The translations under genes and the position numbers were made by a program. 64,000 nucleotides of DNA from Octopus vulgaris (lineage: Eukaryota): positions 92,690,001 to 92,754,000 of the forward strand of contig OX597824.1 in NCBI GenBank assembly GCA_951406725.2, given 5' to 3'. Below the pieces are notes generated by a model. It had not been told where the DNA came from. It saw only the letters and a list, made by a program, of their open reading frames with translations, and made no database searches. Positions within the stretch are counted from its first letter, which is position 1. Each line of letters begins with the position of its first letter. Positions 490 to 8,904 of the stretch are shown piece by piece.

Positions 490-827
490 GTAGTAATTGA
501 TATCATTATCAAGTTATGCACACTAGGTCAATATAATCTGTTACAGCACTCTATCAAAAAAGGTTTTTGGCCATCTTCCAACGGAAAGAAATCAATGTTA
601 GTACCATCACATCGCTAAAAGCAGAGATTCGGACGCGCTTGATTTACATTCTTATTAAATATGTTTAATTGATTTTTTCTCAAAAACATATTTATGTTAC
701 ATTATGTACTTACATGAGAAAGTGTGCGTCTAAATATTTTTCCTAGCTCAAAATGTAAAAAGCATACGTGTGAAAAGTTGCAGTTAGCCCTTGTAACTAG
801 ACGTAGTTTAAATTTTAACGATTTTCA

Positions 828-1060
828 TATTTTATCTCTTGCTTGTCTCACTCATTGGACTGCGGCCATCATGTTGCAACGCCAAAGAGGTTTTCACTCG
901 AATGTATCGGATGCACTACTTACGTGTTTTCATTAGGTCTGGCTCATATTTTATCGAAACATTTGCCGAACTGCTAAGGTACGTGGACGTAAACACACCA
1001 TCATCGGTTGCCAAGAGATGAGGTGGGGGAGAAACATTTACACAACACAGACACAGTGTG
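828..1060 (-). mobile_element. SINE family C, 3' half
   Basis: Reverse complement of the family C 3' region (GGTGTGTTTACGTCC...CTTAGCAGTTCGGCAAA...ATGGCCGCAGTC) seen in the copy at 39548-39930. Confidence 0.7.
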
Positions 1061-1158
1061 TAAAGAAGACGGAAAAATACCGCAAGGGATTTTTCTAACC
1101 CCTAAAATGTTTCTTCTTGGTCGTTTTAGTACATTTCTTTACAGGAACGCACACACAC

Positions 1159-1235
<77 letters not shown>

Positions 1236-1431
1236 ATGTGTGTATGTATGTATGTATGTATGTATGTATGCATGTATATATGTATATACATGTACACAAG
1301 AAGAAAACAATGGACACTCAAAATGAACAATGAAGTATAAATATATATTTTGTCATAGAGCAAACATACTCGGATTATACAGGCTACATCTCAAAATAAA
1401 CTAAAATGAAAGAACGAATTATAACTATATA

Positions 1432-1627
1432 TATTCTTTTCTACTCTAGGCACAAGTTGGGGCTAGTCGATTAGATCCACACCAGTATTCAACTGGTACT
1501 TTATTTATCGACCCCGAAATGATGAAATGCAAAGTCGACTTCGGCGGATTTTGAACTCAGAACGCAAACATAGACGAAATAACGCTATTTCGCCCGTCGT
1601 GCGAACGTTTCTGCCAGCTCGCCGCCT
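1432..1627 (-). mobile_element. tRNA-derived SINE family B (tail type 1)
   Basis: Minus strand reads GGCGGCGAGCTGGCAGAAACG (A box), GAGTTCAAAATCC (B box), then core GTCGACTTTGCATTTCATCATTTCGGGGTCGATAAATAAAGTACCAG, shared with more than 8 copies in the window. Confidence 0.8.
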
Positions 1628-1682
1628 TAATATATAAATATATATCTGTATATATTGTTACAGAGCAAACTTACTCGGATTA

Positions 1683-1800
1683 CACATGATTCCGGGTTCA
1701 GTCCCACTGCTTGGCACATTGGGCAAGTGTTTTCTGCTATAGCCTCCGGCCGACCAGACCTTTGACGGAAACTGAATGAAGTCCGTCGTACGTATATATA
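1683..1800 (+). mobile_element. SINE family C, 5' half
   Basis: CCGGGTTCAGTCCCACTG (B box), TTGGGCAAGTG (CORE-like motif), GACGGAAACTGAA, then runs into (TA)n. Confidence 0.75.
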
Positions 1801-1812
1801 TATATATATATA

Positions 1813-2206
1813 CAAGCAGTATCGCCCGGCGTTGCTCGGGTTGTAAGGGAAATAACTATATAAGCATTTTTAGAGAGTTATAGCAAAAAAATAGCAAAAA
1901 ATGCATTAAAAATTGAAAAATAATTAAGGTAAATTTTTTTTTAAATCGTTGACACATCGTAGATATTTTTAGAGAGTTACTTCCCTTATATAAAGGCGAA
2001 AAAAATGCATTAAAATGGAAAAATATGATGGTAATTTTTTTTTAAATCTTGGACTCATCGTAGACGCGCGCTAATACCCAGAAGGGCTCGATATGAATCA
2101 CGACTATAAGATACCCGCTTTTGGTTAAACTGCATCGCAAAATGTGGGAGTAGTTACGAATCTAAATCGTAGGAGACAGACACACAACTTCACTCTTATA
2201 TAAAGA
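1813..2206 (-). mobile_element. non-autonomous Helitron-like element with an internal ~100-bp duplication
   Basis: Minus strand begins A|TC at 2207/2206 and ends with a GC-rich hairpin (CCCGAGCAACGCCGGG) followed by CTTG|T, a variant of the CTRR end, so it sits in an AT dinucleotide. Two diverged subrepeats at ~1866-1963 and ~1966-2063. Confidence 0.65.
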
Positions 2207-2220
2207 TGCTTTTTTTTTTC

Positions 2221-2536
2221 AGTCATAGAGTTAGATTTATGAAGGTCTTCAGTAGAAAATCCTTCGAATTCTGACTCGCTGCTTGATATAATGAAATTCG
2301 TATCCATTTTTTGTCAGAATTACAAATTTTGAAAACACAATAGGAACAAATTTCGGAAAAAAATCTCCCATAATTCACGGAATTAAAATTACACTTCGAT
2401 TTTTGTACAAAACTGTATTTGAAGTGTTTACGAAGTATAATACGTGTTTTCACGAATGTACTAAAGAGATTTACTCTGATATTCTCATTTAAATATGAAT
2501 AGGTAAATTCAGGCGGTTTGGTAACAAAAGGGTTAA
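2221..2536 (-). mobile_element. piggyBac-like transposon left end with the start of the transposase N-terminus
   Basis: Minus strand starts TTAA-CCCTTTTGTTACC (TTAA target plus CCC terminus). The ORF from 2307 encodes the acidic MDTNFIISSSESEFEGFSTED, typical of piggyBac transposase N-termini. Truncated at ~2220. Confidence 0.55.
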
Positions 2537-3064
2537 ACGGATGCATACATAACTATATATAAGTGTCGCCTGTTTATACATAAACACTGTTTCATACTTT
2601 CAGTTTAGTCTTCCTCAAATCACTCTGTCGCTATTTACTCTCTTCCAAGAACATTTTCACTCACTCTTATCTCTTAGCTTGCCATACATTTTACTCATGT
2701 ATCTATCACCGTGATAGACAGAAACAAATATTACATCGCCATCGCCATCGCCATCGCATTCTATTGTCTACCTGTCAACACACACACAGTGAATTAGTTT
2801 CACTTTATTCGTTGCACACTTTGTGTGTACGTTTGCGTGTGCTGTAAACCAGACTAAGAAAAGCATTTGACATACACACCAGAATGTGAGTTTTCTGTAA
2901 ATTTTGCTTAATTGGAGTTTTAAATTTTAAAAACTGGACCTGGCATGACTCGATGCATTCTACTCTTAAAAATGCTAGGTAAATTGTAATTGAAGAAATC
3001 CTATATTGTAGATTTCTATAAGTGACAAAGGGAGGCAGATAAAATCTGCCTTTTATAATAAGAG

Positions 3065-3067
<3 letters not shown>

Positions 3068-3111
<44 letters not shown>

Positions 3112-3295
3112 AGTCCGTATATGTTTGTGTGCTTGTGTGTGTCTGACAACCGATGCCGGTGTGTTTACGGTCCTGTAACTTAGCGGTTCGGCAAAAGGGG
3201 AAAAGAAAAAGACCTGGGGTTAATTTGCTCGACTAAAGCCGGTGCACCAGCATGGCCGCATACAAATGGCTGAAACAAGTAAAAGAATAAAAGAA
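3068..3295 (+). mobile_element. SINE family C, 3' half
   Basis: (TG)n followed by GACAACCGATGCCGGTGTGTTTACG...TTAGCGGTTCGGCAAAAG...CCAGCATGGCCGCA...GAAACAAGTAAAAGAATAAAAG. Confidence 0.75.
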
Positions 3296-3929
3296 CATAT
3301 AAATATTTACACATACACACACAGGCACGCACATACAAGCAAACGCACATACAAGCAGACACACACACACACACACAGATACTTTTGAAATATAAAATTT
3401 GTGTAAAATTTGTGTAATCTGCATGCATATTCTTGCGTGTGACTTCTACGAGTCAATAAGAGCCTCGATGTGTGTTTTCTTTGAGAGAGACAGAGAGATA
3501 AAGGGCGGGAGAGTGCGTGTGTATTTGCGTGTATGTGTGTGTGTTTATGTATGTGTTTGTGTCTCTGTCTGTGTGTGAGCCTATCTTACAGTTCATTTTT
3601 CTTATGTCGTTTCAAACTCGTCGTACAATGCGTTCTTTCACAGCATTCATATTGCGATGTATTATTATTATATTTTTTTCCCGCCATAACATACTTCTTC
3701 CAATACAGATTTCTAGCTGCAGGATAGAAGTCGTGTTCGAGCTATATCATCGCCATCATCATCATTATCATCATCATCAACGACGTTGTCAATATTATCA
3801 TCATCATCACAATCACCATTATTATTATAATTGCCATTATCATAGTCATTATCGTTTCGTAGCGCAATATTAGTACTAAATATGGTAGTTGCTGCACCAG
3901 CTGTAAAAAAAATAAAAGCAGCAGAGTAA

Positions 3930-3930
3930 C

Positions 3931-4007
<77 letters not shown>

Positions 4008-4088
4008 GTAGTAGTAACGTCACCAGCAGCGGTAGTAGTGGTAGCAGTAGCAGGAGAAGCAGCTTCAGCACTAGTAGTAGTGGTGGTG

Positions 4089-4133
<45 letters not shown>
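3930..4133. repeat. (TAG)n/(TGG)n trinucleotide microsatellite
   Basis: Directly visible. Confidence 0.95.
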
Positions 4134-4134
<1 letters not shown>

Positions 4135-4367
4135 AAACAGTAAAATTTTCCTTATTATCTGCACCAAACTGCGATATCAGTATCCTTCTAAAAAAATTTT
4201 TTATATAACTTAACATTTCAGTGAAAACAGAAAACACGTGAAAATCACTCCCTCATACACATACACACACAATTACACTCACATAATTATAATAAGTACA
4301 AATATCCATATTCGTATACAGACACACATATATATACATATATACACATGTATATATATATATATGC

Positions 4368-4418
<51 letters not shown>

Positions 4419-4458
4419 TGTATGTATGTATATATATGTATGTATTTATGCATACGGT

Positions 4459-4508
<50 letters not shown>

Positions 4509-4671
4509 CGCACACACACACATATATATACATGTGTGTGGCTGTGTGTATGTATATAAATTTACATATATATATGTATATGAATATGTATAGTGTATAT
4601 ACATATATTTGTGCGTGTGTGCAGGTATATTTATGTGTATATGCATATCTATATAGAGAGATATAGATGCC

Positions 4672-4733
<62 letters not shown>

Positions 4734-5264
4734 TACGTTAGCAAAATTTCATAAACGAATATGTAACGTAAATATAATCTGGAGAATAGTGCAACGAGAT
4801 AATGAAAAAGATATATTATAAACGAATTTGTGTAGACGAAAGTTAATAAGAGAAAGTTTGAGAGGCAAATGTGATAAAAATAATTTTTATGAGGTCAGTG
4901 TAACAATATATGGGCGAAACCTCGACAGAATGGAAACGTGAATATGAGGATGGTTTTGATAGTTTAGGTAAGAAAAAATGGAGTAGCAGCGTGAAATATA
5001 ATTGAAGAGACACGATGAGCCATAAATAAGGAAATTAATAAATTTGAATTCAGATATTTCATGCTGAAGTATATTTAAGTATATATATTATAATGAAGAA
5101 AAGGAAGTATATACAGAAAGTAATAATTAGAGAGGAAAAAAGTGCGGGAAGTAATGAATTATATTATTCTGATAGACATCGAGATATGTAGACAGGTATG
5201 GCAGCATATGGACTGACGTAAGTGTATTCATCCGAACATGCATACTCACAGAAGCGAGTATATA

Positions 5265-6212: not shown

Positions 6213-6267
<55 letters not shown>

Positions 6268-6268
<1 letters not shown>

Positions 6269-6471
6269 AAGTTAATCCAAACAAGAAAGCACAAAAAAAC
6301 ACAACAACGCGAGGACGTGGAACAGATATAGTATCATTGGACGCTCAGGAAAGAAGGAAAGAAGGAGGATTTAACGTTTCGAGCGGAGCTCTTCGTCGGA
6401 AACATAGGAGAAGGAAAGATCCTGAGAAGGGAAGACAGAGGGAAAAAAATCGCCAACGGTACACACGAGGT

Positions 6472-6473
<2 letters not shown>
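6268..6473 (-). mobile_element. (TA)n-embedded short Penelope-like element with a hammerhead-like motif
   Basis: Flanked by (TA)n on both sides. Minus strand at 6370-6400 reads CCGACGA-A-GAGC-TCC-GCTC-GAAA-CGTTA. Shares the downstream CCTGAGCGT motif with the copies at 20130-20505 (CCGGAGCGT in the 28977 copy). Confidence 0.55.
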
Positions 6474-6510
<37 letters not shown>

Positions 6511-6550
6511 TGATATATATATATATATATATATCATATATATATATATG

Positions 6551-7054
6551 TATTGTATTGTATTGGCATCCTTTCTGTCTCGGGAGACAATGGAGTTGCG
6601 CATGTTTTTGTTTTTGTTTCTTTTTTGTAGTCTAGTCCGGCTTTTATATTTCATGTCCTGATACATTTCCTGCTGTGGCTGTGTAGTCCTATCCTGGACA
6701 AACACTCCCTCTGGCAGGTACCGCAAATGTAGCGAAGACTGTTCCTGGCTGGTTGTAGTGCCATAGTCTCTTGTTTATGTCTCTTCCATTCTTTCCATTT
6801 CTCCTCTCTCTCTCTGTCACTCTTTTGTATTCCCTCTTTTACTGTACGTCGCCATTCTGCACGGTTGCCGGCAACTGCCTCCCAACCGCTAATATTGATG
6901 CTGCAGGCCTTCATATCCCTTTTGCAAACATCCCTGTAACGTAAGATCGGTCTACCCACAGACCTAGTACCCCTAGCAAGCTCTCCGTAGAGTATGTCCT
7001 TGGGGATTCTGCCATCTTTCATACGGCTAACATGCCCAAGCCATCTCATACGTC
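6551..7054 (-). mobile_element. RTE-clade LINE, non-inverted 3' segment (ORF C-terminus, 3' UTR, (CAATA)n tail)
   Basis: ORF 7049-6651 reads RWLGHVSRMKDGRIPKDILYGELARGTRSVGRP...CGTCQRECLSRIGLHSHSRKC, the typical RTE C-terminus with a Cys/His motif. 3' end hairpin TGTCTC-CC-GAGACA then GGATGCCAATACAATACAATAC. Confidence 0.92.
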
Positions 7055-8135
7055 AAACAAAGGTGACCGTGGTGATTGTAACAATTACCGTGGTATATCC
7101 CTTCTAAGCACTGTTGGAAAGACGTTTGCCTGCGTTATCCTGGCCAGGCTACAACTACTTGCTTCTCGAATCTATCCGGAATCGCAGTGTGGCTTTAGAA
7201 GAAGCAGATCAACTGTCGATATGATATTCTCCATACGCCAACTTCAGAAGTCCAGAGAGCAGAAAATGCCATTATATATGGCCTTCATTGATCTAGGCCT
7301 CTTCCTCCTGCTCCAAAAAATCGGATGTCCATCAAAGCTGCTGAGGATCATCAAGTCTTTCCATGATGACATGCAAGGCACCATACAGCACAACGGTTCA
7401 ACATTAGCCGCCTTCCAAATAAAAAACGGGGTAAAGCAAGGCTGTGTCCTCGCTCCTACATTGTTTGGCATCTTCTTCTCACTCTTACTTTCACATGCCT
7501 TTCAGACATCAGATGATGGAGTGTATCTGCACAGTAGAAGTGACGGGAAACTGTTCAATCTCTCGCGCCTGCGTGCCAAGACCAAAATCAGAAAAGTCCT
7601 GATCAAGGAGATGTTATTTGCTGATGATGCCGCTCTGGTAACACACACAGAAGAAGCCCTCCAAAGGCTCATTAACTGTTTTGAGCAAGCATGTAACGAC
7701 TTTGGCTTAGCTATCAGCCTTAAGAAGACCAACATCATGGGCCATGCTACATCGGACATCCCAAACATACATATTGGAGACCACAGATTACAAGAGGTGG
7801 AGAAGTTTACCTATCTGGGCTCTACCGTCACCTACAACCTATCTCTTGACGCTGAGCTCAATATACGCATTGGCAAGGCAGCTGCTGCGATGGCCCAACT
7901 CCCCAAACGGGCTTGGGACAACAATAAGCTGACCAAGACCACGAAAATGAAGATCTACCAGGCATGTGTACTCAGAACTCTACTGTATGGAAGCGAGACC
8001 TGGACGCTATACACACGCCAAGAGCGTCGCCTAAACATCTTTCACCTGCGCTGCCTCCGAAAAATCCTCCGCATCAAATGGCAAAATCATATCCCCAACA
8101 AAGATGTCCTCAGGCAAGCAGGAATACCAAGCATA
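7055..8135 (+). pseudogene. RTE-clade LINE reverse transcriptase domain, inverted 5' segment of the same insertion
   Basis: Uninterrupted frame NKGDRGDCNNYRGISLLS, PESQCGFR, GVKQGCVLAPTLF, LFADD (7617-7628), FTYLGS, LLYGSETW, FHLRCLRKIL. The endonuclease is absent and the KAFD motif is deleted. Confidence 0.93.
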
Positions 8136-8229
8136 TATGTATATCTACTTCCATACACATATACATCGTTGTGTGAGTGTTGCGTGTGTGTGTGTTCGCA
8201 GGTACATGTGTGTGTGAACCTAATGAAAT

Positions 8230-8530
8230 TCCAAGCTACTCTAAGCTACAATTCAATACCGCTGCAGAAGGCAGCCAACAAAATATGGCGGAGATGGAAA
8301 AGAGCAACAATCGTGATATTACAGACTCAATATCCCAGGGTAGATGACAACGGTAAACAGCGATTATGAAGAAATATAAAAACCGGAGAAAGTAATTAAC
8401 TCAAGAGTTTGCTGTGAAACAAAAGAAAACCGTGTAAGTGATAATAATTGGAGGTCTACGGGTCGTTAAGAGAGAATTCTAAATTTCTTAAACTAGCTGG
8501 CACTGGAAACGATTTAGGAATATTTCCAAC
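8230..8530 (+). mobile_element. possible decayed R4/Dong-type (restriction-like endonuclease) LINE 3' fragment
   Basis: Frameshifted translation gives KRATIV...YPRVDDN and IIGGLRVV, reminiscent of the IID.AIP.D / VIIGALG.V motifs. Highly degenerate. Confidence 0.3.
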
Positions 8531-8904
8531 GATATTTCTTGTAATCTTTGAATTGGCGAAATAAAGGTTTTGCGGTTTCGATTTTTTTTTTGTTTTTTAA
8601 TGTTTTTTTTTTTTTTTGCATTTATCTAGCCATGCAATTCTGTCTCGTTCAGAATCTAATTAATTAAATACATTGATCGATTCTATGAAACTGTTGTTAA
8701 GAATCAGCATCTTTTAGAACGCAACAGGGAATTGGGTAACAAAATGCAAAAACAGCTCCAGATATTCCTGTCCCCGCCTCTCTCTCTCTCTCTCTTTCCC
8801 ACTCTCTTTCTCTCTCCATCTCTCTCCCCCTCTCTTTCTACAACCATCGCCTTCATAATATCTAAATAGTATTAAATGAGATCGAATGACATCCATATTT
8901 GTCG

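Follow-up and report, generated by a model that had tools for sequence, protein, structure and literature searches.

How does a single retrotransposon come to lie in two opposite orientations between one pair of TSDs? The question is raised by positions 6544-8142 of the window, by which we mean the whole 64,000-nucleotide stretch of Octopus vulgaris DNA analysed here. A first-pass annotation had read the interval as one RTE-type LINE split into opposite orientations by twin priming. Six-frame translation of the window places an RT frame on the plus strand and its continuation, RMRWLGHV..., on the minus strand. We measured both parts against L073, a real uninverted copy of the same family, whose oriented positions 1201-5125 serve as the ruler ('ref') throughout. 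As shown in Table 1, window 7055-8134 (+) aligns to ref 2290-3401 with 95% identity, and 7054-6550 (-) aligns to ref 3422-3916 on the same ruler with 93%, the 3' piece and its tail together reaching 6549. A search of the 2.8-Gb genome scored 39 other places, and most of these have the two parts collinear, with about 20 nt between them. The alignment to L073 and the collinear family copies bear out the claim of one split element; the proposed start of the RT part at 7055 holds as well, but its proposed end at 8135 does not, as alignment to the element goes no further than 8134.

The outer end of the inverted piece corresponds to ref 3401 and the 3' piece starts at ref 3422, which places the origin of the inverted piece upstream of the 3' piece. 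Sized against the family, as the annotation had proposed, the deletion between the two pieces is 20 nt (ref 3402-3421), and the missing bases are identical in 32 of the 34 copies that span them. The inverted piece matches Pfam RVT_1 with an E value of 1.2e-24, and its best named protein relative, at 78%, is from Octopus bimaculoides. Both halves are free of stop codons (359 aa in the inverted part, 133 aa in the 3' part), and the ORF ends within the 3' piece in what is presumably a C2H2-like motif. The inverted part has lost 3 nt near 7245 and 30 nt near 7295, both in frame. The 30-nt deletion is private to this copy: it is absent from every other projected copy in sample 1 (defined below) and from all 71 spanning alignments in sample 2. 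The window copy is a dead, 5'-truncated RTE-type LINE copy with its front 1.1 kb inverted and has no evident function. To its left, window 6266-6480 is a separate dispersed repeat, also present in 6 of 100 loci in sample 1 and 7 of 88 in sample 2.

Table 1. Parts of the inverted element and their coordinates in the window.
Feature	Position	Strand	Basis or remark
TSD, tail side, ATATATGTAT	6544-6553		6549-6553 shared with the tail; runs on into an (AT)n tract
(CAATA)n 3' tail, 3.4 units	6549-6565	-	sequence
3' UTR of the RTE-type LINE	6566-6650	-	stop codon at 6653-6651
3' end of the single ORF, 133 codons RMRWLGHV... (ref 3422 onward)	6651-7054	-	alignment; presumed first, tail-primed cDNA
Inversion joint, ref 3422 meets ref 2290	7054/7055		no microhomology, no extra bases
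Inverted RT piece, ref 2290-3401	7055-8134	+	RVT_1; presumed second, internally primed cDNA
TSD, second-primer side, ATATATGTAT	8133-8142		8133-8134 (AT) also matches the element

Full-length copies of the family contain a single frame of 1095 codons, stop to stop, followed by a 3' UTR of about 85 nt, and their nearest full-length relatives are proteins of 1040-1130 aa with PF03372/PF14529 and PF00078. A single ORF with AP endonuclease and RT and no ORF1 is the RTE architecture, and we take the motifs RWLGHV and GDFNARVG to be RTE-like as well. Our putative placement in RTE rests on this architecture and these motifs rather than on a tree. Consistent with it, the family has the short 3' UTR, microsatellite tail and TSDs of that clade: the passages found of PMC6007223 describe RTE elements whose short 3' UTR has a microsatellite tail and whose TSDs measure about 7-15 bp, and those of PMC4245944 give a peak of TSD length at 10-12 bp, which the TSD lengths here fit. 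Tail units vary among the 100 loci of sample 1 (L001-L100), with (CAATA)n, (CAAA)n, (CAAC)n and (CAATAC)n all present, and many copies lie in (AT)n or (AAT)n tracts. The 5' leader of full-length copies (L168:1839-3421 and others) consists of tandem 181-bp monomers, at least 8.7 units that are 98% alike; older subfamilies have another leader, rich in triplet repeats. Rfam returned 0 matches at E 1 for the family's 5' region. Three locus pairs with the same flanks (L014/L016, L111/L176, L164/L165) are local duplications that include the element. RTE-2_OV of the same species, as far as it is described in the available part of PMC9115989, is likewise an octopus RTE-clade LINE with endonuclease, RT and a C2H2 finger, but its ORF of 1109 aa and 3' UTR of about 600 nt differ from the 1095 codons and 85 nt or so found here. 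By this description it is likely to be another family.

The element in the window is enclosed by the 10-bp sequence ATATATGTAT, which occurs in direct orientation at 6544-6553 and 8133-8142, abuts the inverted piece and cannot be extended. It is thus present at both ends, as had been claimed, but it is of low complexity and half of it is tail: five of the ten bases of the left copy also belong to the (CAATA)n tail, a 5-nt first-primer microhomology. As the same 10-mer occurs 43 times on the plus strand of the 64-kb window, the TSD is weak on its own. In a cross control, the 5' flank of the window copy matched the 3' flank of 1 of 100 other copies over at least 10 bases, whereas its AT-rich 3' flank was matched over at least 10 bases by the 5' flanks of 20 of 100. 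Given this control and the frequency of the 10-mer, the TSD of the window copy is supportive and falls short of decisive.

The right TSD had also been thought to overlap in-frame S-I-Y codons of the element and so to document a microhomology with the second primer. The family, however, reads AGC ATG TTT (S-M-F) at ref ~3401 and continues GTTTGC. The I-Y codons are therefore target DNA, and the second-primer microhomology shrinks to the 2 nt AT, a match of at least 2 nt being expected by chance at 16-28% per junction. Over 10 nt the target end and the RNA would form 6 Watson-Crick pairs and one G-T wobble. The inner joint at 7054/7055, which the annotation had also marked out for a check of microhomology, has 0 nt of it, no extra bases and no flank DNA.

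Inverted copies, for which the annotation had recommended a genome-wide count, were counted here in two samples of the family. Sample 1 was drawn with a 31-mer of the 3' end that has 535 exact matches; the first 100 of these, on contigs C1-C3, were taken blind to inversion and with all rows kept, among them two loci that are mutual duplicates and one whose 5' end contains an N run. Sample 2 was drawn with a 5' marker at ref 602-624, whose 131 matches contributed their first 100; of these, 12 are in sample 1 and 88 are new. Six of the 100 copies in sample 1 are inverted (L004, L060, L061, L062, L071, L088; Wilson interval 2.8-12.5%), or 4 of 48 when only copies of at least 500 bp are considered. 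Among the 88 new loci of sample 2, seven are inverted (L109, L112, L113, L124, L135, L148, L182) and two more are doubtful (L141, L170). The junctions of L004, L060, L061, L062, L071, L109, L112, L124 and L135 were read by eye.

In five of the six inverted copies of sample 1, the sequence that is inverted originates 5' of the 3' piece. The inversion in L060 is accompanied by a 12-nt deletion, that in L088 sits inside a bipartite copy, and L061, L071 and L004 skip 1.2-3 kb between the pieces, the inversion of L004 being visible only once the 5' leader is added. L062 has its inverted piece (ref 3780-3855) inside its own 3' piece, which starts at 3758, with a 4-nt microhomology, and is an inverted duplication. 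The inverted pieces of L112 and L004 are themselves rearranged (L112 has a leader piece and then ref 652-83, and L004 begins with a short additional segment), which points to switching of template in the course of second-strand-primed synthesis. L156, a full-length copy, carries its last 40 bases twice, in inverted orientation, at the 3' end.

Five inverted copies among the 188 loci have non-repetitive TSDs, of 15 bp in L071 and 11 bp each in L088, L112, L124 and L182, which removes the low-complexity objection for the family. In four of the five the TSD overlaps the inverted piece, by 2, 3, 2 and 3 nt, with a chance expectation of 16-28% each; L124 has no overlap and shows an imperfect T-run between TSD and element. 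The TSDs of L004, L061, L062, L109 and L135 lie in AT-rich repeats and are untrustworthy, and L148 has no 3' end. Automatic calling found TSDs of at least 7 bp in 42 of 100 copies, compared with 5.4% of 1500 cross pairs; the count of 42 is a minimum, because (CAAC)n and (CAATAC)n tails escaped the tail parser. The family-level case is stronger than that of the single window copy.

These data allow us to propose how the window copy arose, and twin priming on a single RNA most likely made it. The claim of twin-priming geometry in an invertebrate RTE element is sustained by that geometry itself, the TSD, the 20-nt deletion, the same subfamily on both halves, and recurrence in the family with unambiguous TSDs; the steps that follow are our reconstruction. 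The element's endonuclease would nick one strand at an AT-rich site, where the (CAAUA)n tail would pair over 5 nt and prime a first cDNA reaching ref 3422. A second nick 10 nt away would free a 3' end, and this would pair at ref 3400-3401, with two exact pairs and imperfect pairing beyond, just ahead of the first cDNA. The second cDNA would then run 1112 nt to ref 2290, sequence 5' of that point would never be copied, and host repair would join both cDNA ends without microhomology. The 3-nt and 30-nt deletions likely came later. Twin priming is favoured, too, by how close the second priming point is to the end of the 3' piece: 20 nt, where the element offers more than 3.9 kb.

An ordinary 5'-truncated insertion whose front was inverted later, by double-strand-break repair, would also leave a blunt inner joint, and the private 30-nt deletion attests that the copy was damaged afterwards. 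We regard this as improbable, however. One break would have had to coincide precisely with the boundary of the old 5' end and the TSD, so that the TSD stayed direct; flank DNA is absent from the inner joint; and the same coincidence would be required in L071, L088, L112 and L182.

Inversion during insertion but on DNA templates, by snap-back of the cDNA or templated synthesis by a repair polymerase with subsequent loss of the duplicated part, appears quite improbable for the window copy. L062, with its inverted piece within its own 3' piece and its 4-nt microhomology, fits snap-back, and L004 and L112 have extra template switches; snap-back is also reported for R2 protein inserts in the passages found of PMC11371274. 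In the window, by contrast, no part of the element is duplicated and the whole inverted piece derives from sequence upstream of the retained 3' piece; a snap-back origin would need a later, exact 1.1-kb deletion.

If two RNA molecules or two separate insertions had supplied the halves, these might differ in their nearest relatives, and the raw distances lend this some colour. The RT half has 17-22 differences in about 1079 sites from most copies and is as near the youngest subfamily (17/1079) as L078 (19), whereas the 3' half is clearly nearer L078 (7/419, against 17-23); over the 23 copies that span the RT piece, the rank correlation of the two halves' distances is negative (-0.37, p 0.08). 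The long-range inverted copies L061 and L071 could likewise involve a second RNA. Against such a dual source, the bases at diagnostic sites among the 23 copies match the L078 lineage in both halves (inverted half, 9 of 9 sites; 3' half, 19 of 22), which answers the concern, raised in advance, that the halves might belong to different RTE subfamilies. In addition, 20 nt separate their ends on the family map, both sit within a single TSD, and there is no second tail. We consider a dual source very unlikely and infer that both pieces came from one RNA molecule.

An assembly artefact is extremely unlikely: the family is of high copy number and the inner joint was not seen among the listed contigs, but two other runs also contain the outer junction (differing from the window by 10 letters and one gap over ~465 bases), both halves carry private variants, and other inverted copies have base-exact TSDs. 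For this comparison we aligned contigs of four public runs (X2, X4, X8, X9) to 6530-8570, X2 and X9 having no coverage of the outer junction. One contig each of X4 (8107-8570) and X8 (8105-8570) contains that junction, extending 28-30 nt into the element, below our 31-nt criterion, over non-repetitive sequence. The differences amount to about 2%, and the nine that were listed are all in the flank, so the outer junction is common to a lineage about 2% apart. Of the two joints whose confirmation the annotation had advised, the outer one is present in these contigs, while the listed contigs do not bridge the inner one: among the contig pieces listed for X1, X2, X4 and X8 on 7005-7104 none crosses 7054/7055, the longest near the joint being 50-51 nt and each on one side only, and such holes prove nothing. 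No empty allele was seen on 6530-8570 in the contigs of the four runs, with X2 and X9 lacking coverage. In three runs a contig connects window 8198 with 6799 through an identical 12-letter stretch; it probably stems from another copy next to a similar microsatellite.

The copy had been taken for a young insertion because it is free of stop codons. It is stop-free, but it has 14 private substitutions in 1498 sites, compared with 1-8 in about 1500 for the youngest subfamily and up to 24 for older copies, and on this ground we rejected a very young age. These substitutions, the private 30-nt deletion and the outer junction in contigs about 2% different in the flank together argue that the copy is not very young. 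Judged by its sequence differences it is older than the youngest subfamily, and 'young' would apply only in a relative sense. The family itself was recently active, as had been proposed: 12 of the 88 new loci in sample 2 hold frames of at least 1000 codons.

Twin priming was put forward by Ostertag and Kazazian in 2001 for 5'-inverted mammalian L1, as described in the passages found of PMC2912911 and PMC4245944. The window copy shares with such L1 the order of TSD, inverted upstream piece from an internal priming point, small deletion, 3' piece, tail and TSD, and a TSD of at least 10 bp; the short second-primer microhomology of L1 may have its counterpart in the 2 nt found here, a match within chance for one copy. 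It differs in being a single-ORF RTE-type element with a (CAATA)n tail in an octopus host. The frequency differs too: an excerpt of PMC2912911 gives 639 of 2068 human- and chimpanzee-specific L1 copies (30.9%) as 5'-inverted, whereas we find 5-6 per 100 family copies; roughly 1 in 20 insertions of the family take this form, compared with about 31% for these young L1. According to the part of PMC4245944 available, 5' inversions were confined to L1 in human cells, with the exception of a single Nimb-2_DR insert, and a dependence on L1 and on host factors was proposed. The Nimb-2_DR insert, in chicken DT40 cells, is by the same passages also a 5' inversion of a non-L1 LINE, with TSDs of about 12 bp; it is a single engineered event in a foreign host and from another clade, in contrast to the many genomic germ-line copies of the window family.

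Also unlike L1, the inner joint of the window has no microhomology, a feature that is frequent and not obligatory in twin priming, and several family copies skip 1.2-3 kb between the pieces. Ichiyanagi and Okada are said to have surveyed RTE junctions in work of 2008. RTE 5' inversions are reported neither in the passages found of PMC4245944, PMC6007223, PMC5786205, PMC4476161, PMC13174262, PMC11371274, PMC9115989, PMC13282606, PMC5389967 and PMC2912911 nor among the titles listed by literature searches, a set of titles and excerpts that does not establish absence from the literature. Most likely, our observations represent a mechanism already known, in a clade and a host for which few descriptions of it exist, here with family-level counts.

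The junctions of the family point to a further regularity near the start of the ORF. Direct internal deletions of more than 500 bp among 5'-marker copies leave their 5' part at ref 632-728 in 9 of 15 cases, each junction being distinct (p 7e-10 against a uniform distribution over 624-3400; the 5' marker conceals junctions before ref 624). In the blind sample 1, all four bipartite junctions lie at ref 642-691. In the bipartite copies (L015, L052, L088, L100, L102, L110, L117, L149, L182) the 5' part is fused to the final 60-240 bases. That 5' region occurs in inverted and tailless copies as well: the inverted piece of L071 starts at ref 648 and the inverted segment of L112 runs from 652, and L164:3618-4247 (duplicated in L165) is a tailless 5' fragment, ref 19-648, with an 11-bp TSD, as if left by internally primed reverse transcription. 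Other inverted copies start elsewhere, at ref 298, 940, 1193 and 1271 and in the leader. Several zone junctions have A-rich or 6-8-nt microhomology, which may explain them locally. Long-range RNA pairing was considered as a cause and set aside, the best window in the zone ranking 12 of 170 in duplex energy with the 3' end.

The bipartite copies recall Bov-A and RTESINE, which the passages found of PMC5786205 describe as bipartite non-autonomous RTE derivatives: 9 of 100 5'-marker family copies have likewise lost everything between the 5' region and the 3' end. Unlike those derivatives, all nine family junctions differ, so the copies look like separate events and not amplified families, and the window copy itself is not bipartite. 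Tentatively, and with real doubt, we suggest that RTE RT might re-enter at one preferred zone (ref 630-730, at the ORF start) with three uses, in direct jumps, inverted second-strand synthesis and tailless priming; that twin priming might be general to ORF1-less invertebrate RTE elements; and that the same protein-held RNA loop might be the source of bipartite derivatives that seed SINEs.

Together, the repeated inversions enclosed by TSDs in this RTE-type family, which has a single ORF and resides in a cephalopod, show that ORF1p, a poly(A) tail and a mammalian host are not needed for such events. They imply that the second nick can occur before the first cDNA is finished, and the family offers many natural junctions at which this could be measured. 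The re-entry zone is a testable lead on why RTE elements in particular yield bipartite derivatives.
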